The notes below the pieces were generated by a model that saw only the letters and a program-made list of their open reading frames with translations, was not told the DNA's origin and did no database searches. A program made the position numbers and the translations under genes. Positions 1 to 11,166 of a stretch of 18,996 bases of DNA are shown here, one piece after another. The DNA comes from a virus. The stretch lies in the UHGV virus genome UHGV-0337515. One strand, written 5' to 3'. Every line of letters begins with the position of its first letter. Positions within the stretch are counted from its first letter, which is position 1.

Positions 1-134
1 AACAATGGTTTGAACCCGGAACCGCCCGCGCGCTTGATGCGTTTATTGAGGGGATGACGCTGCATTTTGTCACCGACCGTAAGCCGCTATCGCGCGAGGA
101 GATTTTGAGGATGGTTGAGAGGGTTGCAGGGTAG
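1..134 (+). CDS. 3' end of a flanking (probably host) gene, C-terminal ~44 codons; product unknown
   Basis: Frame starting at position 3 is open from the window edge to TAG at 132-134 (…[33 protein letters not shown]). Not in the ORF track because no start codon lies in the window. Lies outside the phage-like genes. Confidence 0.35.
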
Positions 135-150
135 TAGATAAGTTTTAGAT

Positions 151-179
151 AACAAAAAACCCATTTATGTAAATGGGTT
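151..179 (-). terminator. Rho-independent terminator of the leftward cI-int operon; possibly overlaps the att core
   Basis: Perfect 10-bp inverted repeat aacccattta/taaatgggtt (158-167 / 170-179) with a 2-nt loop. On the minus strand it is followed by a T-run (plus-strand A-run 151-159). Confidence 0.55.
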
Positions 180-184
180 AATGA

Positions 185-216
185 AAACAATAAGTTAGAG
201 TAAAAACAATAAGTTG
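185..216. repeat. Two 13-bp direct repeats aaaacaataagtt (185-197 and 204-216); candidate integrase arm-type or IHF sites
   Basis: Exact 13-bp direct repeat 19 bp apart, in the non-coding region between the host gene end and the int-side genes. Confidence 0.45.
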
Positions 217-284
217 GGTTGGTGGTCAGTGGTGGTTATTACGGGGTAATGCCAACCGCTGCCGCCACTTTGTCGCCACTTGTT

Positions 285-554
285 TTACCTTAGACGCCAG
301 GGGCCTCTATCTTCAATCTGTTCGACTAACCCCTCCTCTTCTAGTTCACGCAATAGTGCAACAACCCAATATTGTTGGTTCGAACTTGTTGCTTTCCGTT
401 TTTCTCCCCAATCGAGGCCGCTTAGACGAAATACCTCAGCTTGCTTAACGCCGTTGCCGTTTTTTTGGGCATCTGGGTGAGTTTTAAGTACGGATAAAGC
501 CAATTCTTTGGCTCTGTTGCGCAATTCCGCTCCCTGATGCTGAAACTTATTCAT
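285..554 (-). CDS. Hypothetical 89-aa protein, possibly winged-helix DNA-binding, downstream of int
   Basis: ORF with GGAG 8 nt upstream of the ATG at 554. C-terminal half (QQYWVVALLRELEEEGLVEQ) resembles a winged-helix recognition region. Function not recognised. Confidence 0.55.
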   Translation of the reverse strand: MNKFQHQGAELRNRAKELALSVLKTHPDAQKNGNGVKQAEVFRLSGLDWGEKRKATSSNQQYWVVALLRELEEEGLVEQIEDRGPWRLR

Positions 555-612
555 TGATAGTGCTCCATGTGAAAAAAAAGAATATTAGCTCAACAGGGCA
601 AAATACGCATTT

Positions 613-1644
613 TCAAAAACTTGCTATTGATGTTGGTAGTGTTGCCAGCGGATTAAACCGTAATGCAGTTTCCAGGTGATCCGGTGCCAGATGTGCGTAA
701 CGCATAGTCATTTTTATATCGTGATGCCCGAGAATTTTTTGTAAGGCCAGGATATTTCCACCCGACATCATGAAGTGCGCCGCAAACGTATGGCGCAGAA
801 CGTGTGTCAGTTGACCGCGAGGGAGCACGATAGACGTTTTTTCCATCACGGATAAAAATTGAAAATAGCAGTCTGTAAAGAAATTGAACCCATCAAGCGC
901 CATGATCTCTTCGTAAAGCTCTTTACTGATAGGGATGCTTCTGTTTTTCTTCCCCTTCGTTCTTACAAAGGTAATTCGGTATTTGGTCACCTGTGAGCGG
1001 GTAAGATTTACGGCTTCACGCCAACGTGCGCCTGTGCTTAAGCATATCTTAACTACCAGTGCCAGAATTGGGTCCTGACGTTTGCAATCAGCCAGCAATT
1101 CAACAATCTGCTCATGGGTAAGCCATGCCATCTCTTTTTCTGCGATGGTGAATTTTCGCATGTTCTCCAGTGGGTTCGGATACGACCATTCGCCCAGGCG
1201 GGATAGTTCGCTAAAAACACTACTTAGATAGCTTTGCTCCAGGTTAATGGTGACCGGGCTTGCTCCTTTCTTCCATTTCTCGCTGAAGTAGATCTCACCT
1301 GTCAGGCGTTTATCTCGATAGTGGGCAAACATTTTAGATGTGAGATCAGTTGCAAGGGGATTGCCCAGAGCGTCAACCATCAGCAGCAATTTGTCATAGA
1401 CATGCTGCCCAGCAGTCAGTGATTTACCATGTAGTTTGAACCATAGCTCAACCACGTCTTTCAGTGTTCGACGATCCACTGATTCACCCAGCCAGGGCTT
1501 TGCTTCGGTTTCTTCCATCGTGTGACGCTCAAAAGCCAGTGCTTCGCCTTTGGTGGCGAATTGTTTACGCACACGACGCCCACTACGTCCGGCGGGGTAA
1601 CATTCGCAAAGCCATTTTCCTGTGGTGAGTTTTCGTACAGCCAT
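613..1644 (-). CDS. int: Tyrosine integrase (P2/186 Int family)
   Basis: Translation from ATG at 1644 (MAVRKLTTGKWLCECYPAGRSGRRVRKQFATKGEALAFE…) matches the P2 Int N-terminus. C-terminus carries HxLRHT…RYAHL catalytic motifs. The ORF-track 5' extension to 1800 has no counterpart in P2 Int. Confidence 0.92.
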   Translation of the reverse strand: MAVRKLTTGKWLCECYPAGRSGRRVRKQFATKGEALAFERHTMEETEAKPWLGESVDRRTLKDVVELWFKLHGKSLTAGQHVYDKLLLMVDALGNPLATDLTSKMFAHYRDKRLTGEIYFSEKWKKGASPVTINLEQSYLSSVFSELSRLGEWSYPNPLENMRKFTIAEKEMAWLTHEQIVELLADCKRQDPILALVVKICLSTGARWREAVNLTRSQVTKYRITFVRTKGKKNRSIPISKELYEEIMALDGFNFFTDCYFQFLSVMEKTSIVLPRGQLTHVLRHTFAAHFMMSGGNILALQKILGHHDIKMTMRYAHLAPDHLETALRFNPLATLPTSIASF

Positions 1645-1832
1645 AAAAAATGCCCTCCAATAGAGAGCATTTTTACTGTATGTATAACCAGTGTCAATGT
1701 ATGAAATCCTGCGACCATACATCTCACTGAAGCCATAATGAAGTAGGCTATTCTTTTTGCTATGTGAGCATGTAACTTTTGCGGTTAACCTGTGGCTCAT
1801 TTTTATTTTAGGCGCAGATATAAAAGCAAAAG

Positions 1833-2024
1833 TTATCGTGAGTTTTTAGTACAGATTTTTTTGGATTTACTAATAGTTCCATCATTGCAAACGAATTTGC
1901 CATCAGAGGTACAGTGAGAAACACCTCCCTTTTTCCCTGAGCAGGGATAATTTCTAGCATAGGTAGCTAGTGGGTTTAATAACAAAGAACATGACAAAAC
2001 CACAAAAAATACCTTACCAAGCAT
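1833..2024 (-). CDS. Small secreted cysteine-rich basic peptide (63 aa precursor, predicted signal peptide) between cI and int
   Basis: Strong SD (GGGAGG) 5 nt upstream of the ATG at 2024. N-terminal hydrophobic segment [23 protein letters not shown], then a ~40-aa Lys-rich region with 4 Cys. Starts 16 nt after the cI stop, so it sits in the lysogenic operon. Confidence 0.55.
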
Positions 2025-2039
2025 AATTTCCTCCCGGTA

Positions 2040-2609
2040 CTATTTAACATACTTGACTGTTAAACTTATAATTTTACCAATTATTTCAATGTCTTCTATC
2101 TTGCATTCGAAGGCTCTGTTTCCACCCTCGACGAAGATTCTTCCACCGGGTAAACGAGTAATGTCACGGATCGTTATTTCGCCATCAATACTTATTACCC
2201 ATTTACCATCACGTATATCATCAAATTCCTTATCACAAATAAATTCAGAATTATTATCTGTGATTACAAAAAGATTCTTGAATGCCGACGGTAGAAATTC
2301 TCTATCGAAAATATAAAAACCGTCTTCACACAAGGCCCCATCAGATAATACATATTTAGCAACTTCCATAGTATTTGTATTACCTGAAGTTTGCTTTGAA
2401 CCATGCCCGGTTGTGAGCCAATTAAGCGAGGTGCCTGTTTCAAGGGCGCACTGGATTACCCATTCTGCTGGGAATGAGTCACGCATGTAGCGTGTGGCGA
2501 GTGTACTTTTAGAGATTCCTAAATGATCGCACAACGCCTGTCGAGTCTTGAATCCATAAGCTTCTACCATGCGCTCTATAGCGCCTCGTCCGCCTTTCTC
2601 CAAATTCAT
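2040..2609 (-). CDS. cI: 186-type CI immunity repressor (about 189 aa)
   Basis: N-terminal HTH region (…VEAYGFKTRQALCDHLGISKSTLATRYMR…CALETGTSLNWLTTGHG) resembles phage 186 CI; its ~190 aa length fits 186 CI rather than the ~99-aa P2 C. ATG at 2609 has GGAG 6 nt upstream; the track start at 2615 is GTG. Confidence 0.85.
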   Translation of the reverse strand: MNLEKGGRGAIERMVEAYGFKTRQALCDHLGISKSTLATRYMRDSFPAEWVIQCALETGTSLNWLTTGHGSKQTSGNTNTMEVAKYVLSDGALCEDGFYIFDREFLPSAFKNLFVITDNNSEFICDKEFDDIRDGKWVISIDGEITIRDITRLPGGRIFVEGGNRAFECKIEDIEIIGKIISLTVKYVK

Positions 2610-2633
2610 GGTCACTCCAAGTGAACTTTTATC

Positions 2634-2662
2634 TTGACGATTTCACTGTGCGATCGTATGTT
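2634..2662 (+). promoter_or_regulatory. Candidate early lytic promoter pR (TTGACG-17 bp-TATGTT)
   Basis: -35 TTGACG at 2634-2639, 17-bp spacer, -10 TATGTT at 2657-2662, in the cI/apl intergenic region pointing toward apl. Confidence 0.5.
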
Positions 2663-2734
2663 TATGGTGTTCACAAAATACAAACGATCCGTATTCGTCC
2701 TGATTAATCATCATTAAACGAGGAATGTTGCATC

Positions 2735-2956
2735 ATGAGACCTAACATTTCAATCACTCTTACCACGCCTCATGTGACTATTGAACGCTATAGCGAGCTG
2801 ACAGGGCTATCCATCGATACCATCAATGACATGTTGGCTGATGGACGCCTTATCCGTCACCGTCTGCGCAAAGATAAAAAACGCGAAAAAGTGATGATCA
2901 ACATAGCAGCAATGACCGTTGATGCGCTTTCAGAATGCAATCTAAACCTTAATTAG
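2735..2956 (+). CDS. apl: Apl/Cox-like excisionase and transcriptional regulator (73 aa, HTH)
   Basis: First rightward gene, divergent from cI, same position as 186 apl / P2 cox. HTH-like segment [21 protein letters not shown]. Confidence 0.65.
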
Positions 2957-2988
2957 TTCGATTCTGAGATACATCAGAGGCATTGACC

Positions 2989-3498
2989 ATGTTTGATTAC
3001 CAAGTTTCCAAACATCCACATTTTGATGAAGCCTGTCGTGCATTCGCATTGCGCCACAACCTGGTGCAACTGGCAGAACGTGCTGGCATGAATGTGCAGA
3101 TTCTGCGGAACAAGCTGAACCCAGCTCAACCTCATTTATTAACCGCACCAGAAATCTGGCTGCTTACCGATCTGACTGAAGATTCAACGCTGGTAGATGG
3201 TTTTCTGGCTCAGATTCACTGCCTGCCATGCGTACCGATTAATGAGGTGGCAAAAGAGAAACTGCCACATTACGTCATGAGTGCAACCGCAGAGATCGGG
3301 CGTGTTGCTGCAGGTGCGGTATCTGGCGATGTAAAAACCAGTGCAGGTCGTCGTGATGCTATCAGCAGCATTAACTCTGTAACACGACTGATGGCGTTGG
3401 CTGCTGTTTCATTGCAGGCCCGTTTACAGGCTAACCCTGCGATGGCGAGTGCAGTTGATACCGTGACTGGCCTCGGTGCTTCATTCGGTTTGCTGTGA
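2989..3498 (+). CDS. cII: CII lysogeny-establishment activator (186 CII family)
   Basis: [24 protein letters not shown]…[25 protein letters not shown]…[21 protein letters not shown] closely matches remembered 186 CII. ATG at 2989 has AGAGG 9 nt upstream; the track start at 2983 is TTG. Confidence 0.85.
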
Positions 3499-3505
3499 GG
3501 TGCTT

Positions 3506-3802
3506 ATGCTGACGAAAGAACCATCATTTGCATCGCTGCTGGTAAAGCAAAGTCCGGCAATGCACTACGGTCACGGCTGGATCATGGGTGAGGATGGAAA
3601 ACGCTGGCATCCATGTCATTCACAAGATGAATTGCTGTCTGAATTGACCACGAGGAAACGGAGAAAGTCAAAATGTATGCAGCGGAAAGTGAAGTGGTTT
3701 ATCAGTTTCGTTACAGAGGGGAGAGTTATTCAGTACCTGAAGATGATTTGCTCTGTTGTTATCCGTCGTTGTTGGGCGATGGCAGTTACTTTTTCACGCT
3801 AA
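3506..3802 (+). CDS. Hypothetical early protein (98 aa) at the fil-like position after cII
   Basis: First ATG at 3506 with GAGG 5 nt upstream, directly after the cII stop. The 3' third overlaps the next ORF in another frame, so the true stop is uncertain. Confidence 0.4.
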   Translation: MLTKEPSFASLLVKQSPAMHYGHGWIMGEDGKRWHPCHSQDELLSELTTRKRRKSKCMQRKVKWFISFVTEGRVIQYLKMICSVVIRRCWAMAVTFSR

Positions 3803-3897
3803 AGGATGGGACGTTTTTACGGGGAGAGCAGGTTAAAGAGACGATACGAAAAAATGTATCTCCTCTTGAACGTTACCGTAAGAACAAAGAACGATAG
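3673..3897 (+). CDS. Hypothetical early protein (74 aa)
   Basis: ATG at 3673 with GGAG upstream; protein-like composition (MYAAESEVVYQFRYRGESYSVPEDDLLC…). Confidence 0.45.
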   Translation: MYAAESEVVYQFRYRGESYSVPEDDLLCCYPSLLGDGSYFFTLKDGTFLRGEQVKETIRKNVSPLERYRKNKER

Positions 3898-3919
3898 TTG
3901 CGTTTTGGGGATATGAATT

Positions 3920-4261
3920 ATGGCAATTAATGGCGCTGCGGCGACTGTTCCATTAAGCCCCGGTGAACGCCTGAATGGACTTAATCACATTGCGGAGTTA
4001 AGGGCGAAAGTTTTTGGTCTGAATATTGAGTCAGAGCTTGAGCGGTTTATTAAAGATATGCGTGATCCACGCGATATTAATAGCGAACAAAATAAACGGG
4101 CACTGGCTGCCATATTCTTTATGGCAAAAATTCCAGCTGAACGTCATAGCATCAGCATTAATGAGCTGACCACTGACGAAAAGCGGGAGTTGATTAAAGC
4201 AATGAATCATTTTCGTGCAGTAGTGAGCTTATTTCCCAGACGGCTAACCATGCCGAATTAA
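3920..4261 (+). CDS. Hypothetical early protein (113 aa)
   Basis: ORF with GGGGA upstream of the ATG at 3920; sits among the early genes. Confidence 0.55.
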   Translation: MAINGAAATVPLSPGERLNGLNHIAELRAKVFGLNIESELERFIKDMRDPRDINSEQNKRALAAIFFMAKIPAERHSISINELTTDEKRELIKAMNHFRAVVSLFPRRLTMPN

Positions 4262-4328
4262 CCAACTAATGAAATTAATGGCGTAAACCCGCCGGGCATC
4301 CCTTTATCTAAATTCAGGAGAATTGATT

Positions 4329-4562
4329 ATGCGTAATATTGAAACCCTCTCGACCAAAACCGGACCGGATGACGCAGGGCTTAATATTTTACTGACAGAG
4401 GCTCGTCTGGAAGAACGCCGGGCAAGGGCTGAAGCAATGGCAGCTCGCCTTGATAGCCTGGCGTGTCATATCACATCCCGCCAGCTAACCCACGTCGAAG
4501 CGGCAGAACTGCTTCGTGTGACTGCTGAAGCAATCCAGAACGAAGCGCAGGAGATCCACTAA
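4329..4562 (+). CDS. Hypothetical early protein (77 aa)
   Basis: ATG at 4329 with CAGGAG 8 nt upstream; the track start at 4323 is TTG. Stop abuts the next gene's start. Confidence 0.55.
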   Translation: MRNIETLSTKTGPDDAGLNILLTEARLEERRARAEAMAARLDSLACHITSRQLTHVEAAELLRVTAEAIQNEAQEIH

Positions 4563-4789
4563 TGGCTGATGCAATGGATCTCGTACAGCAGCGCGTTGAA
4601 GAAGAACGCCAACGCCATATCCGTGCTGCCCGTGCCAAAACGCCGGGCGTGTCCCGCGTGCTTTGCATTGAGTGTGAAGCGCCAATTCCGCCAGCACGCC
4701 GCCGTGCCATTCCGGGTGTGCAGCTTTGCATTACCTGTCAGGAAATCGCAGAGCTGAAAGGCAAACATTACAACGGAGGTGCTGTATGA
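4562..4789 (+). CDS. TraR/DksA-family C4 zinc-finger protein (P2 Orf82-like)
   Basis: C-terminal CxxC-(17 aa)-CxxC (CIECEAPIPPARRRAIPGVQLCITCQ) typical of the TraR/DksA zinc finger. Same position as P2 orf82 upstream of A. Confidence 0.7.
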   Translation: MADAMDLVQQRVEEERQRHIRAARAKTPGVSRVLCIECEAPIPPARRRAIPGVQLCITCQEIAELKGKHYNGGAV

Positions 4790-5643
4790 GCACCATCCTG
4801 AAATGGGCGGGAAATAAAACCGCCATTATGTCTGAACTGAAAAAACATCTTCCTGCTGGCCCGCGACTGGTTGAACCTTTCGCGGGTTCCTGTGCAGTGA
4901 TGATGGAGACGGAGTACCCCAGCTATCTTGTCGCGGATATTAATCCTGATTTAATCAACCTCTATAAAAAGGTTGCTGCTGATTGTGAATCGTTTATATC
5001 TCGCGCCAGAGTTTTATTTGAGATCGCAAACAGGGAGGTGGCTTATTACAACATAAGGCAGGAGTTTAATTACTCAACTGAAATTACTGATTTCATGAAA
5101 GCGGTATATTTCCTGTATCTCAATCGTCACGGTTACCGTGGTTTATGTCGCTATAACAAGAGCGGGCATTTCAACATTCCCTACGGTAATTATAAAAATC
5201 CGTATTTCCCTGAAAAAGAAATTCGCGCATTTGCAGAAAGGGCCCAGCGAGCAACGTTTATCTGCGCCAGCTTTGATGAAACGCTGGCGATGTTGAAGGC
5301 GGGGGATGTGGTGTATTGCGATCCGCCGTATGACGGTACGTTTTCCGGCTATCACACTGACGGCTTCACTGAAGATGACCAGTATCACCTGGCATCTGTT
5401 CTTGAACATCGGTCATCAGAAGGACATCCGGTCATTGTTTCTAACAGTGACACATCCCTGATCCGTTCGCTGTATCGCAATTTTACTCACCACTACATCA
5501 AGGCAAAACGCAGCATCGGTGTGGCAGCTGGCGAGGGTAAATCAGCAACAGAAATCATTGCTGTTTCCGGGCCGCGCTGCTGGGTGGGATTTGATTATTC
5601 GCGTGGCGTGGACAGTTCTGCCGTGTACGAGGTGCGTGTATGA
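4786..5643 (+). CDS. dam: DNA adenine methyltransferase (Dam-like, N6-adenine)
   Basis: Starts [11 protein letters not shown] (Dam N-terminal SAM-binding signature) and contains the DPPY catalytic motif ([10 protein letters not shown]). ATG at 4786 has GGAGGTG upstream and overlaps the preceding stop. The track extension from 4726 is unsupported. Confidence 0.88.
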
Positions 5644-8054
5644 GTCATGCCGATATGAGCGACTCTAGCGGCTTTAACGAGGCCGCTGCAGCATTTTCAT
5701 GGAACGGCCCGAAAAAGGCCATAAACCCTTATCTGGACCCGGCGGAAGTTGCGCCGGTTTCTGCGCTTTCAAACCTGATCACTCTGTATGCTGCCGATAA
5801 CGAGCAGGAACAGCTGCGCCGCGAGGAATTGAGTGAACAGGTCTGGGAGCGTTATTTCTTTAATGAATCCCGTGATCCTGTCCAGCGCGAAATGGAGCAG
5901 GATAAGCTCATTAGTCGGGCAAAGCTGGCGCATGAGCAGCAGCGTTTTAACCCGGACATGGTCATTCTGGCGGACGTCAGCGCCCAGCCCACCCACATCA
6001 GCAAGCCGCTGATGCAACGTATCGAATACTTCTGCAGCCTTGGCAGGCCAAAGGCTTATTCCCGCTATTTGCGTGAGACGATTAAGCCATGTCTGGAGCG
6101 ACTGGATTGTGTACGCGACAGTCAGCTATCCACTTCTTTTCGCTTTATGGCGAGCCATGAAGGGCTGGACGGCCTGCTGATCCTGCCTGAAATGAGTCAG
6201 GATCAGGTGAAACGCCTGTCCACCCTGGTAGCTGCGCATATGAGCATGTGCCTTGATGCAGCTTGTGGCGATTTGTATGCCACCGATGACGTTAAGCCAG
6301 AAGAAATCCGCAAGACATGGGAAAGGGTGGCAGCAGAAACCCTGCGACTGGATGTTATCCCACCTGCGTTTGAGCAACTCCGCCGGAAAAGAAACCGCCG
6401 TAAACCCGTGCCCTATGAACTCATTCCGGGTTCGCTGGCGCGTATGTTGTGCGCCGACTGGTGGTATCGGAAATTATGGAAGATGCGTTGCGAATGGCGG
6501 GAAGAGCAGTTGCGCGCTGTCTGCCTGGTCAGCAAAAAAGCATCTCCCTATGTCAGCTATGAAGCCGTGATGCATAAACGTGAGCAGCGCCGTAAGTCGC
6601 TGGAGTTTTTTCGTTCTCATGAACTGGTGAACGAAGACGGCGATACGCTGGAGATGGAAGACGTGGTAAACGCCAGCAGCAGCAACCCTGCGCATCGCCG
6701 CAATGAGATGATGGCCTGTGTTAAAGGTCTGGAGCTTATCGCGGAAATGCGCGGTGACTGCGCCGTTTTCTACACCATCACCTGTCCGTCACGTTTCCAT
6801 TCCACGCTAAATAACGGCAGACCAAACCCGACCTGGACAAACGCGACGGTAAGACAAAGCAGTGATTATCTGGTCGGCATGTTTGCTGCATTTCGTAAAG
6901 CGATGCACAAAGCCGGATTGCGCTGGTATGGCGTGCGGGTGGCTGAGCCGCATCATGACGGTACAGTTCACTGGCACCTGTTGTGTTTTATGCGCAAAAA
7001 AGATCGCCGAGCCATTACTGCTTTGTTGCGTAAGTTTGCCATTCGTGAAGACCGCGAGGAGCTGGGTAATAACACGGGACCACGCTTTAAGTCTGAGCTG
7101 ATAAACCCGCGCAAAGGTACGCCAACAAGCTACATCGCGAAATACATCAGTAAGAACATTGACGGGCGTGGTCTGGCTGGTGAGATCAGCAAGGAAACGG
7201 GTAAATCCCTGCGTGATAACGCTGAATACGTTAATGCCTGGGCGTCTCTGCATCGTGTTCAGCAATTTCGCTTCTTTGGTATTCCGGGGCGTCAGGCTTA
7301 CCGTGAACTGCGATTGCTGGCTGGTCAGGCGGCAAGGCAGCAGGGGGACAAAAAAGCAGGTGCGCCGGTACTGGATAACCCACGCCTTGATGCCATCCTG
7401 GCTGCTGCTGATGCTGGCTGTTTTGCCACCTACATCATGAAGCAGGGCGGCGTGCTGGTTCCCCGCAAATATCACCTTATCAGAACAGCTTATGAAATTA
7501 ACGAAGAGCCGACCGCCTATGGCGATCACGGTATTCGTATTTATGGCATCTGGTCACCCATTGCAGAGGGCAAGATCTGCACTCATGCCGTGAAGTGGAA
7601 AATGGTTCGTAAGGCCGTTGACGTTCAGGAGGCGGCAGCCGACCAGGGCGCTTGCGCCCCTTGGACTCGTGGCAATAACTGTCCCCTTGCTGAAAATTTG
7701 AACCAACAGGAGAAAGATAAATCAGCTGATGGGGACACCAGAACGGACATTATCCGCATGGATGACAAGGAGTTGCACGATTACCTGCACAGTCTGAGCA
7801 AAAAAGAGCGCCGGGAACTGGCAGCAAGGTTACGCCTGGTTAAGCCGAAATGGCGTAAAGACTACAAACAGCGAATTACAGATCATCAGCGACAGCAGCT
7901 CGTCTATGAACTGAAGTCCAGGGGATTTGATGGCAGCGAGAAAGAGGTCGATTTACTGCTTCGCGGCGGCAGTATTCCGTCAGGAGCAGGCCTGCGTATC
8001 TTCTATCGGAACCAGCGTTTGCAGGAAGATGATAAGTGGCGAAACCTGTATTAA
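5640..8054 (+). CDS. A: Replication initiator A (rolling-circle nicking protein, P2 gpA / 186 RepA family)
   Basis: 804-aa protein with an HUH-like motif ([10 protein letters not shown]) and paired tyrosines (SYIAKYISK) as in the P2 A active site. Start overlaps the dam stop (ATGA). Confidence 0.9.
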
Positions 8055-8694: not shown

Positions 8695-8727
8695 GGCGAT
8701 GTCAATCAGATATCGCCTTGTTTTTTG
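8695..8727 (+). terminator. Weak candidate terminator hairpin between the DinI-like gene and the lipoprotein gene
   Basis: Inverted repeat ggcgat/atcgcc (8695-8700 / 8712-8717) followed by ttgttttttg. Confidence 0.3.
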
Positions 8728-8752
8728 TCAAGAAAAGAATAATAGGCTAAAA

Positions 8753-9430
8753 ATGAAAATTAATAATGTAGCGTTACCAATATCTCTTGCTGTAATCCTA
8801 ACTGGTTGCGTGCCACATGCTTCTAACCGAAATATCACTGCTATTGAAGTGGTGAAGCCAGCTATTGGGCAAAGTGCTACCGCCTACATGGGCGATCCCA
8901 TTATCACATCTGCTACTGGATTTAAAACGGACGTACTAGAACTTGGTGCGGCTAATGGTGCATTGTCTTCTATCGCTGCTGGTACATATTGCAGTGAGGG
9001 GAATGGAATTTACCGCAATTATCATAACCCTCAAGCTGTTGCGTTAAAAAATCTCTATGGGCAAATCGGTAACTATGTTGATTATGTTAGTTACGATGCT
9101 GCAAAAAATGAGATATCACCGCCAAATGGCACTTCTTATACTGCATCAGAAATTTCTATCAAACGTGTTCCTGATGGGCTGTGTCGAGTGAGTAATTCAT
9201 TGGTTAAGACTATCGAATATAATGGAAATGCAGGCGGTGTAATGAAGTTCACCTATCGTGAATTTGCAAACGATATGGCTCGTGCAGCATTTACAACAGA
9301 TTTTTCTGTAGATTCTAAGGGAAGTGATGTTATCGCTTACAAAGGTGCCAAGTTCAAAGTGAACAAGGCTGATAACTCGTCTATTTCTTATACAATTATT
9401 TCTGGCTTTGACAAGGCTGTCACGTTCTAG
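8753..9430 (+). CDS. Lipoprotein of unknown function (accessory gene)
   Basis: From ATG at 8753: MKINNVALPISLAVILTGC, a canonical lipoprotein signal peptide with lipobox LTGC. GC looks lower than the phage core genes. The track start at 8699 would put 18 residues in front of the signal peptide. Confidence 0.7.
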   Translation: MKINNVALPISLAVILTGCVPHASNRNITAIEVVKPAIGQSATAYMGDPIITSATGFKTDVLELGAANGALSSIAAGTYCSEGNGIYRNYHNPQAVALKNLYGQIGNYVDYVSYDAAKNEISPPNGTSYTASEISIKRVPDGLCRVSNSLVKTIEYNGNAGGVMKFTYREFANDMARAAFTTDFSVDSKGSDVIAYKGAKFKVNKADNSSISYTIISGFDKAVTF

Positions 9431-9559: not shown

Positions 9560-9603
9560 CGTAGATCATGCAGGTGCATGAAAACCACTACATAAAGCGG
9601 GCA

Positions 9604-9622
9604 GGCGTGGCGGGGATACGAG
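9604..9622. other. cos-like sequence (candidate cohesive-end site)
   Basis: GGCGTGGCGGGGATACGAG; the first 13 nt match the remembered 19-nt cohesive end of 186 (GGCGTGGCGGGGA…) and P2 (GGCGAGGCGGGGAAAGCAC). Located between the A-side genes and Q, as in P2/186. Assignment from memory. Confidence 0.35.
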
Positions 9623-9660
9623 CGCGCGCAACCTGATTTGATTGAGAAAGTTTGGCTAGT

Positions 9661-9724: not shown

Positions 9725-9753
9725 TTGACTTGAGGTGTAGTTGCAGTATTATA
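9725..9753 (+). promoter_or_regulatory. Candidate sigma70 promoter of the two-gene cassette (TTGACT-16/17 bp-TATTAT)
   Basis: -35 TTGACT at 9725-9730 and -10 TATTAT at 9747-9752, followed by AAGGA (9761-9765) and ATG at 9775. Confidence 0.55.
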
Positions 9754-9774
9754 AAAAGAAAAAGGATCTTTCTT

Positions 9775-10506
9775 ATGTACAGATTGTGGGTTTTATGGGG
9801 TTGTATCTTTGTTCTTCTACTTATTATCATGGGGTGCATTCCGTTTTCACCGTTTGAAAAATGGTGGTTTATAGTTAATTTCATGTCAAATGTAAACATA
9901 ATTCGTGCTTTTCTATCAGTATTAATACTATTTTTAGTTGCTTATATCTTGCTGGTCGGTGCATTTCATCAAAGATATTCATTGAGATTAGAGCAACTTA
10001 GTTTTGGTGGTATTAATATTTTACTAAATAAGTCTGATCTTCTTTTTAAAAAGAGCGTAAAAAATTATCTGGATACGAAGCGAACATTATTTAAATTTGA
10101 TCCGAATTATGACTCAATTGAAGAAGTTTTAAACTCATATTATGAGTGCTATAAATTCATTAGAGATGAAATGAAATTACTAGATGTGAAGAAAAAAAGA
10201 GATAAAAAACTGTATTTACTTTCAAATGAAATTTTGAAAACGTTAAACTCTTTTTTAACAAAGCATCAAAATAATTATCGGAGATGGCATAAATATGTTT
10301 CAGATAATGATAAAGTGACCACAAAGGATAGAGACCCTAACGGCGAATTTATATCATTGCCGTATCATTTAACCCCTATAAGTACTATACAAAAGCATTA
10401 TTATCATTTTAGTCAAGTATTGGAAGGTTTTAAAGAAGTAAACGATTTCTTCAATGATAAGGTAGTCAAAGAGTTTGATATAAATGTTGATAAATGGAGT
10501 GAATAA
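9775..10506 (+). CDS. Membrane protein with two N-terminal transmembrane helices and a ~170-aa helical C-terminal domain; candidate defence effector
   Basis: From ATG at 9775: hydrophobic helices LWVLWGCIFVLLLIIMGCIPF and IIRAFLSVLILFLVAYILLVGAF. Very AT-rich compared with flanking phage genes. Stop overlaps the next gene's start (TAATG). The track start at 9730 is TTG inside the promoter. Confidence 0.75.
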   Translation: MYRLWVLWGCIFVLLLIIMGCIPFSPFEKWWFIVNFMSNVNIIRAFLSVLILFLVAYILLVGAFHQRYSLRLEQLSFGGINILLNKSDLLFKKSVKNYLDTKRTLFKFDPNYDSIEEVLNSYYECYKFIRDEMKLLDVKKKRDKKLYLLSNEILKTLNSFLTKHQNNYRRWHKYVSDNDKVTTKDRDPNGEFISLPYHLTPISTIQKHYYHFSQVLEGFKEVNDFFNDKVVKEFDINVDKWSE

Positions 10507-11123
10507 TGCATAAGACGTTTCTTAGTTATCATCATGCTAACGAACAAGATCTCAAAGATGAGATTATTGATTTATTCGGAGGAGAATCGTTTATTGATAA
10601 GTCGGTAAGTGATGGTGACATTAGTACAACTAACACTGATGAAACAATAATGAGGACTATTCGTGAGGATTTTTTAAAAGACTCAACGGTTACTGTCGTT
10701 CTTATTGGAACGGAAACCAAAAATCGTCCATTTGTAAACTCTGAAATTCAAGCATCACTCTGGGGAGAAAACTATAATGGTCTAATTGGTGTTATCAGAG
10801 ATGAAATTTACGACAGTGTGTTTACTCCTGCAGTATGTGCAGATCCATCATGCGGATGTTCTATAAGTCTAAGAACGCCAGGTTGGGGATATGATTATTA
10901 TTTGCCTTATCTGGTTAGAAAGAATCATGTTTATGAAAAAACAGTTCCCCATTATAATGACTCTGACGTATATTGTGCATTGGTAAAATACTCTGTCTTT
11001 ATTAAAAATCCTGAGTATTATATTGATCAGGCATTTAACAAGCGTAAGTTGATGGAACCAGCTGCTAAACGAAATCCATCGGATGTTCCTGCAATTCGCA
11101 GCTCATCAATTTTTAACTGGTAA
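10506..11123 (+). CDS. TIR-like domain protein (ThsB/DUF1863-like), candidate defence sensor or NADase
   Basis: N-terminus MHKTFLSYHHANEQD fits the TIR first-strand signature (compare ThsB …VFFSFHYQD… as remembered); central TVTVVLIGTETKNRPFVNSEIQ fits the TIR core strand plus conserved Glu region. Translationally coupled to the upstream membrane protein. AT-rich. Confidence 0.7.
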   Translation: MHKTFLSYHHANEQDLKDEIIDLFGGESFIDKSVSDGDISTTNTDETIMRTIREDFLKDSTVTVVLIGTETKNRPFVNSEIQASLWGENYNGLIGVIRDEIYDSVFTPAVCADPSCGCSISLRTPGWGYDYYLPYLVRKNHVYEKTVPHYNDSDVYCALVKYSVFIKNPEYYIDQAFNKRKLMEPAAKRNPSDVPAIRSSSIFNW

Positions 11124-11128
11124 TAAGA

Positions 11129-11166
11129 GGGTGCATAAACATTATGCACCCATATGCTATTTTTTA
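11129..11166. terminator. Terminator hairpin between the convergent cassette and Q
   Basis: Perfect 10-bp inverted repeat gggtgcataa / ttatgcaccc (11129-11138 / 11142-11151) with a 3-nt loop, followed by a T-run at 11160-11165. Confidence 0.5.

Follow-up and report, generated by a model that had tools for sequence, protein, structure and literature searches.

A cassette of membrane protein and TIR genes in an Escherichia coli P2/186-like prophage is very probably a type VI Thoeris operon

Organization of the two-gene cassette

The DNA analysed here, referred to as the window, is the whole 18,996-nucleotide stretch of virus genome UHGV-0337515. Positions 9725-11166 of the window hold a cassette of two open reading frames on the same strand, the first encoding a protein of 243 amino acids (9775-10506) and the second a protein of 205 amino acids (10506-11123). 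The genes are designated thsG and thsB, after the published anti-phage system to which they very probably belong. The list of open reading frames contains no third gene inside the cassette. A preliminary description of the locus, made from the DNA letters, regarded the two genes as coupled, and the stop codon of thsG and the start codon of thsB indeed share one base in the sequence TAATG at positions 10504-10508. The motif GGAG is located 6 nt upstream of this overlap. In the mechanical list of open reading frames thsG starts at a TTG codon at position 9730, whereas in RefSeq and in all 27 aligned homologues the start corresponds to the ATG at position 9775. The identical E. coli locus in RefSeq has the same gene coordinates, and its products are labelled "hypothetical protein" and "TIR domain-containing protein". 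The GC content of the cassette (9725-11166) is 0.319, compared to 0.492 for the whole window and approximately 0.53 for genes A and Q/P on either side, which agrees with the low GC content relative to the neighbouring phage genes pointed out in the preliminary description.

The cassette was also proposed to have its own promoter and terminator. A candidate sigma-70-like promoter is positioned at 9725-9752 on the plus strand, where the hexamers TTGACT and TATTAT are separated by 16 nt and match 10 of the 12 consensus positions. The site is the best plus-strand match of a promoter scan of the region, and its function as a promoter is predicted. The scan alone constitutes weak evidence, because it identified 13 promoter-like sites across the region, compared to 8.1 expected. 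Downstream of the cassette, where thsB and portal gene Q converge, there is a GC-rich hairpin with a 10-bp stem and a 3-nt loop (11129-11151). The hairpin is strong, with calculated folding energies of -15.3 kcal/mol for the plus strand (z = -3.9) and -15.5 kcal/mol for the minus strand (z = -3.4). Nevertheless, it is scored as a terminator on the minus strand only, because the run of T on the plus strand begins 7 nt past the stem. The position of the hairpin after the portal gene matches that of tQ of P2 and tW of 186. Since the better T-tract is on the minus strand and the hairpin is located at the place of tQ and tW, it probably functions as a shared, bidirectional terminator of the two convergent units, thsB and Q.

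Position of the cassette in the prophage

The segment of the window between positions 9600 and 11200 is 100% identical to the corresponding DNA of E. coli strain 401651. The genes of strain 401651 are arranged in the order integrase, CI, CII, Fil, Dam, replication endonuclease A, a small open reading frame, DinI, and a hypothetical protein, followed by the "hypothetical protein" and "TIR domain-containing protein" of the cassette, and then by the convergent portal and terminase genes. The cassette is thus part of a P2/186-like prophage and is located there in the interval from replication gene A to portal gene Q, the accessory position named in the preliminary description.

The left edge of the cargo is marked by a cos-like cohesive-end site, GGCGTGGCGGGGATACGAG, at positions 9604-9622 of the plus strand. 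The site aligns with the 19-nt cosL of P2 and 186, and its first 13 nucleotides are identical to those of 186. The motif GGCGWGGCGGGG occurs once in the window, where 0.01 matches are expected by chance. The same motif is also present just upstream of thsG in the loci of E. coli ACN001 and Serratia, which are described below. Matches from the phage database to the segment 9600-11200 cover only positions 9600-9636. The cos-like site represents the context of the cassette and is outside the defence operon.

The cassette is bounded by cos on one side and by the 3' end of portal gene Q on the other. The interval from cos to the stop codon of the portal gene is 1,541 bp long in the window, compared to about 165-175 bp in P2 and 186, and it is filled by the cassette. 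The cargo therefore occupies the far left terminus of the packaged chromosome, on the same side of cos as gene Q. On the other side of cos, P2 carries the genes old and tin, and the window carries DinI and a gene for a lipoprotein-like protein. The association with the old and tin region put forward in the preliminary description has to be corrected accordingly, since the alignment of cos at 9604-9622 places the cassette on the opposite side.

Properties of the encoded proteins

The product of the first gene has two hydrophobic segments in its hydropathy profile, formed by residues 1-29 and 33-68. The AlphaFold2 model of the monomer (pLDDT 85) contains transmembrane helices 2-21 and 40-64, followed by a helical C-terminal domain of approximately residues 83-240. 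The hydropathy profile and the model agree on the two N-terminal transmembrane helices and the helical domain that had been recognized previously. The linker between the two parts (residues 69-83) is modelled with low confidence and bears an FGGxN motif that is invariant in the homologues. Arginines follow the second transmembrane helix, and the loop between the helices is neutral; according to the positive-inside rule, this suggests that both termini of the protein, and with them the C-terminal domain, are in the cytoplasm.

Searches of Pfam, NCBIfam, PHROGs, and PADLOC provided no meaningful family match for the first gene product, and a fold search of its model against the PDB identified only generic helical bundles. 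The protein contains no SIR2 or SLOG domain detectable with Pfam or PADLOC, and the cassette does not contain any other gene; type I Thoeris was rejected on these grounds. Type II Thoeris was rejected for the lack of a Macro domain, for which there was no Pfam match at E <= 1 and no match to the PADLOC ThsA models, and the model of the protein is a helical bundle. A SLATT domain was also not matched in Pfam or PADLOC, which led to the rejection of type VII Thoeris and of a SLATT effector of CBASS. The earlier statement that the protein lacks Macro and SIR2 motifs is therefore borne out by the profile scans. The "2TM + 1TM + TIR" system of phage AC1 was rejected because the sequence of its insert, given in Table S2 of Rousset et al. 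2022 (PMC9122126), is different from that of the window.

The product of the second gene belongs to the ThsB family, as had been anticipated from its motifs KTFLSYHH and TVTVVLIGTE...NSEIQ, both of which are present. Residues 5-96 match the Pfam family PF08937 (ThsB_TIR) with E = 1e-14 and a score of 55.2 bits, above the cut-off of 21.2 bits, and seven ThsB-type models of PADLOC match the protein with E-values down to 6.5e-12. The TIR core spans approximately residues 3-100, and the C-terminal extension beyond it contains a CxxxxCxC cluster. Glu80, in the sequence VNSEIQ, aligns to the glutamate of VRYEI in chains A of B. cereus ThsB structures 6LHY and 9B7D and to that of VKYEIE in 8wcf_A. 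Since the glutamate at this position is the catalytic one according to the literature, Glu80 is a candidate catalytic residue. The protein is 44% identical over 100 residues to the TIR protein of a system from a Gammaproteobacteria scaffold, whereas the C-terminal halves of the two proteins differ. The Cys-rich C-terminal half is also present in ThsB of E. coli S1, at 71% identity. The ThsB proteins of ACN001, S1, and the Gammaproteobacteria scaffold are members of one TIR cluster, 2741407742, and ThsB from the window belongs to it as well.

Identity with the type VI Thoeris system of E. coli ACN001

The DNA of the cassette is 99.1% identical to a locus of E. coli ACN001, and the encoded proteins are identical to those of ACN001 in 238 of 243 residues (98%, ThsG) and 203 of 205 residues (99%, ThsB). 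One of the differences in ThsB adjoins Glu80: residue 79 is Ser in the window and Thr in ACN001, and Ser is also present in the validated ThsB of E. coli S1. The ACN001 locus was cloned by Yirmiya et al. (bioRxiv 10.64898/2025.12.03.692087), who demonstrated its anti-phage defence and introduced the name type VI Thoeris for it, with the components ThsB and ThsG. Table S2 of that study lists the ACN001 TIR protein 2638504641 and the effector 2638504642, the latter annotated as "DUF6650 and TM", as type VI with Defense = Yes in E. coli MG1655, and gives T7 as the trigger of ACN001 ThsB. The system was cloned and is active under its native promoter, and the sequence of ACN001 ThsB printed in Table S1 is that of the second gene of the cassette save for two substitutions (Yirmiya et al.).

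The same two proteins had been catalogued earlier as P2-hotspot system #35 by Rousset et al. 2022 (PMC9122126, Table S5B), under the label "DUF1863", with 107 occurrences and the remark "2 TM in protein 1". The link to the anti-phage hotspot of P2-family phages suggested in the preliminary description is thus correct. The system is already known: the catalogue entry of 2022 was followed by validation and naming in 2025, and further work made use of the system in 2026.

The assignment of the 243-residue effector gene (9775-10506, plus strand) as thsG is based on its 98% identity to the ACN001 effector, the AlphaFold2 model, hydropathy, homologues, and a transitive HMM comparison, and that of the 205-residue gene (10506-11123, plus strand) as thsB, encoding the TIR-domain, signal-producing sensor, on Pfam, PADLOC, and 99% identity to ACN001 ThsB. 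The cassette is therefore very probably (with a probability of about 0.92) a type VI Thoeris operon thsG-thsB, carried as cargo by an E. coli P2/186-like prophage and allelic to the ACN001 system. The Thoeris-like anti-phage module of a TIR sensor and a two-helix membrane effector, as first proposed for this DNA, accords with the published defence of E. coli by the nearly identical ACN001 locus. In contrast, the suggestion that the membrane protein could be an uncharacterised type of effector is superseded, since its family is the ThsG of type VI Thoeris, described in December 2025, and the catalogue entry for the pair dates from 2022.

Family of ThsG proteins

A search of 5.8 billion proteins identified 39 relatives of the first gene product, mostly from Enterobacterales but reaching as far as Priestia, and an exhaustive profile search identified 213 relatives at E <= 0.001. 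Most of the distant relatives have one or zero hydrophobic segments. Four homologues with 36-58% identity, from Serratia, a JGI metagenome contig, another metagenome contig, and Priestia (Bacillota), are each followed immediately 3' by a gene for a ThsB_TIR protein. The Serratia pair is also carried by a P2-like prophage and occupies the same position in it, between gene A and the portal gene. The pairs of Priestia and of one of the metagenome contigs (L006) are inside islands rich in other TIR genes. The pairing of thsG and thsB is conserved as a unit across phyla.

The ThsG of the type VI system from a Bacillus scaffold was recovered as a soluble protein of 170 amino acids, whose gene adjoins that of a ThsB 100% identical to ga0102589_100169733. 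An intermediate profile, constructed from the distant relatives with the protein from the window left out, matches both ThsG from the window (99.4 bits) and, over its whole length, the soluble Bacillus-scaffold ThsG (67.6 bits). Direct comparisons did not bridge the two proteins: hhalign of the alignment of close homologues with the single Bacillus sequence yielded a probability of 0.8%, and the A1 HMM yielded 4 bits. Because the intermediate profile matches both, the transmembrane form from E. coli and the soluble, 2'cADPR-responsive form are assigned to one family. As judged from this profile comparison, ThsG is a single family with a variable N-terminal membrane anchor.

The label "DUF6650" given to ThsG by Yirmiya et al. 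was not reproduced with HMMER. Searches with hmmscan detected no match to PF20355 (DUF6650) at E <= 10 for the first gene product and its 27 aligned homologues, no match at E <= 1 among 57 distant relatives, and also none for the validated Bacillus ThsG. In total, 85 relatives and two Bacillus ThsG proteins were without a match. Because the validated protein is unmatched too, hmmscan with PF20355 cannot discriminate ThsG. One homologue, P0026, has a precomputed PF20355 match that is absent on hmmscan.

Of the 5,426 E. coli genomes in the complete-genome set, 42 contain the cassette. Standard pipelines will under-call type VI Thoeris in these roughly 0.8% of complete E. coli genomes, because RefSeq carries only the two labels quoted above, PADLOC-DB 2.0 has no model of the effector, and Pfam DUF6650 misses ThsG. 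The identification of the locus in the window has limited value as a discovery, and is useful as an annotation of the RefSeq "hypothetical protein" and "TIR domain-containing protein".

Proposed mechanism and alternative explanations

It is likely, by analogy with the published systems, that this allele confers anti-phage defence through a signal from ThsB to ThsG. The prophage would express thsG and thsB from their own promoter, as we infer in agreement with the activity of the ACN001 clone from its native promoter. Infection by another phage would activate ThsB to convert NAD+ to a cyclic ADP-ribose signal, as published for other type VI TIR proteins. The signal would bind to the cytoplasmic helical domain of ThsG, which would be held in the inner membrane by its two transmembrane helices. 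Activated ThsG would then halt the growth of the cell, presumably by breaching the membrane, and the phage cycle would be left incomplete. The killing of the cell by the membrane protein, as envisaged in the preliminary description, is in part consistent with the published model: the effector role of ThsG stands, whereas the published outcome is growth arrest, and the breach of the membrane is a hypothesis of the authors (Yirmiya et al.).

The proposed mechanism is modelled on the type VI systems characterized in the preprint (bioRxiv 10.64898/2025.12.03.692087). [quoted passage not shown] The growth of cells carrying a type VI system is arrested by the addition of 2'cADPR, whereas 3'cADPR and cADPR have no such effect. 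The defence is cancelled by the sponges Tad1 and MoTad2 and by the 2'cADPR hydrolase XopQ (Yirmiya et al.). In AlphaFold 3 predictions from the same study, ThsG forms a homo-hexameric tube with basic pockets between the protomers. Conserved residues of ThsG that are candidates for contacts in such a pocket are K102/R103, R130, Q165, R169/R170/W171, and Q206.

It is conceivable, although doubtful, that the operon and its defence role are as described above, but that the signal used by the clade of ACN001 and S1 is a TIR product different from 2'cADPR, and that the pocket of ThsG is tuned to this product. [quoted passage not shown] The response to 2'cADPR, including its toxicity, was demonstrated with two ThsG systems, the transmembrane-containing one from the Gammaproteobacteria scaffold and the one from the Bacillus scaffold, and not with ACN001 or S1 (Yirmiya et al.). 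The difference in the Cys-rich C-terminal half of ThsB, next to 44% identity over 100 residues with the Gammaproteobacteria-scaffold TIR, points in the same direction, and ACN001 and S1 are likely to behave alike because they are close relatives. However, the ThsB proteins of ACN001, S1, and the Gammaproteobacteria scaffold share one TIR cluster, and the effector domain is homologous to a 2'cADPR-responsive ThsG. Furthermore, the authors first of all explain the negative results by production too weak to be detected, and the ThsB proteins of ACN001 and S1 were on native promoters. That the P2-borne E. coli clade of ACN001, S1, and the window is among the 2'cADPR-negative variants, with a different TIR-derived signal and a diverged ThsG pocket, is a tentative proposal that we regard as unlikely.

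The TIR protein could itself be the killing effector, acting by depletion of NAD+, with the membrane protein as a sensor or regulator and no diffusible signal to ThsG. NADase effectors are common among bacterial TIR proteins. The preprint raises this possibility for unverified configurations, but its caveat concerns the non-verified types, and type VI is a verified one (Yirmiya et al.). Since 2'cADPR alone arrests cells with the transmembrane ThsG, and the sponges and XopQ abolish the defence, ThsG acts downstream of a diffusible signal; the second gene also belongs to the ThsB family of signalling TIR proteins, and a directly killing TIR protein is thus very improbable for the cassette. AT-rich cargo with its own putative promoter at the end of a prophage also resembles many morons, and the cassette could in principle encode a non-defence function, such as a membrane factor of lysogenic conversion or a toxin-antitoxin pair with a TIR fold. 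The published defence phenotype of a 98-99% identical locus, the strict pairing with ThsB_TIR across phyla, and the location of the pairs from Priestia and contig L006 in TIR-rich islands make such a function extremely improbable. The preferred reading remains a type VI Thoeris operon in which ThsB would signal to ThsG.

Comparison with known systems

The "2TM + 1TM + TIR" system of P2-like phage AC1, which defends a lysogen (Rousset et al. 2022, PMC9122126), is similar to the cassette from the window in combining TIR and membrane proteins in the same cos-proximal hotspot of P2. However, the AC1 system consists of three genes of unrelated sequence. Type VII Thoeris, with a SLATT effector and canonical cADPR, shares with the cassette the principle of a TIR signal that targets an oligomerising effector in the membrane, but both the fold family of the effector and the published signal are different.

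Type II Thoeris is composed of a TIR protein and an effector that combines two transmembrane helices with a Macro domain, and its signal is His-ADPR. The cassette from the window resembles it in that the partner of the TIR protein is an effector with a pair of N-terminal transmembrane helices and a cytoplasmic sensor domain, the latter predicted for ThsG. In contrast to the type II effector, the first gene product from the window has no Macro domain. The TIR proteins of types V-XI also differ from type II in that they produced no detectable His-ADPR (Yirmiya et al., bioRxiv 10.64898/2025.12.03.692087).

Within type VI, the Bacillus-scaffold system is, like that from the window, a two-gene operon with a TIR gene, and the helical domain of its ThsG is homologous to that from the window (67.6 bits). 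In contrast to the cassette from the window, thsB is the first gene of the Bacillus-scaffold operon and its ThsG lacks transmembrane helices. The Bacillus-scaffold ThsB belongs to another TIR cluster and has no significant pairwise similarity to that from the window. The system from the Gammaproteobacteria scaffold, which is the model for the response to 2'cADPR and the inhibition by XopQ, shares with the window a transmembrane-containing ThsG and a ThsB of the same TIR cluster, 44% identical over the TIR core. The ACN001 system has the same genes in the same order, with the TAATG-type coupling, and is carried by a P2-like prophage, where it adjoins the portal gene. This prophage of ACN001 is a remnant whose portal gene is truncated, and the gene for the 225-aa lipoprotein-like protein, which precedes cos in the window, is missing from it. 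The two alleles differ in five residues of ThsG and two residues of ThsB.

Properties of ThsG and ThsB

The ThsG protein (gene 1) contains an invariant FGGxN motif, formed by residues G78, G79 and N81, which lies within residues 69–83 (positions 9979–10023). In the model of the ThsG monomer, residues 69–83 are the only segment with pLDDT below 50. Such low confidence would be expected if this part of the protein were disordered in the monomer and took on its structure upon oligomerisation.

The Pfam family PF20355 (DUF6650), used as a label for ThsG, was matched by a single homologue of gene 1 (P0026) in the precomputed annotation of the database, and this match was not reproduced by hmmscan at E ≤ 10. 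The DUF6650 model appears to be too narrow for the detection of ThsG proteins, some of them validated.

The C-terminal extension of ThsB comprises about 100 amino acids (gene 2 residues about 100–205; positions 10803–11123). The extension contains a conserved C-x4-C-x-C cluster, which reads CADPSCGCS in the window and CTDFRCNCG in E. coli S1, whereas the cluster is absent from the ThsB of the Gammaproteobacteria scaffold, which was used for the 2'cADPR work. Metal binding or the sensing of phage may be the role of the extension with the cysteine cluster.

Genomic surroundings of the Thoeris genes

In two loci with Bacillota-type contexts that encode homologues of gene 1, L003 from Priestia (positions 1–6432) and L006 from a metagenome (1–5376), the thsG–thsB pair is surrounded by several other TIR genes: TIR_2, LD_cluster2-TIR, and additional ThsB_TIR genes. 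These surroundings look like TIR-rich defence islands. In E. coli 13TMH22, the cassette is present both in the chromosome and on the 36-kb circular record NZ_CP019257.1 ("plasmid", 36,172 bp), where the match H71 spans positions 365–1702 with 98.3% identity. The size of the record fits either a P2-like phage genome in circular form that the assembly presents as a plasmid, or another, related phage.

Another AT-rich stretch of the window, with a GC content of 0.34–0.37, is located near the integrase/repressor end at about 1600–2400. When its coordinates are shifted onto the identical, annotated locus of E. coli strain 401651, it overlaps the genes for a "YdcA family protein" and the CI repressor.

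Between DinI and cos, the window encodes a protein of unknown function of 225–243 amino acids (8699–9430, with the RefSeq start at about 8753). Its N-terminus is lipoprotein-like (…LAVILTGC). The protein matches phrog_1353 (E = 4e-105) and has no match in Pfam or PADLOC. Because the gene is missing from the ACN001 prophage, it is a variable cargo gene in its own right, located on the side of cos that faces A.

Upstream of the cassette, at 9604–9622 (region 9600–9636), the window contains a sequence resembling the cohesive ends of cos, GGCGTGGCGGGGATACGAG, with CGCGCGC after it. Therefore, the Thoeris genes are flanked by cos and the portal gene and occupy the left end of the genome as packaged, rather than the side of cos on which old and tin are found. 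The ACN001 and Serratia loci share this cos–Thoeris–portal layout.
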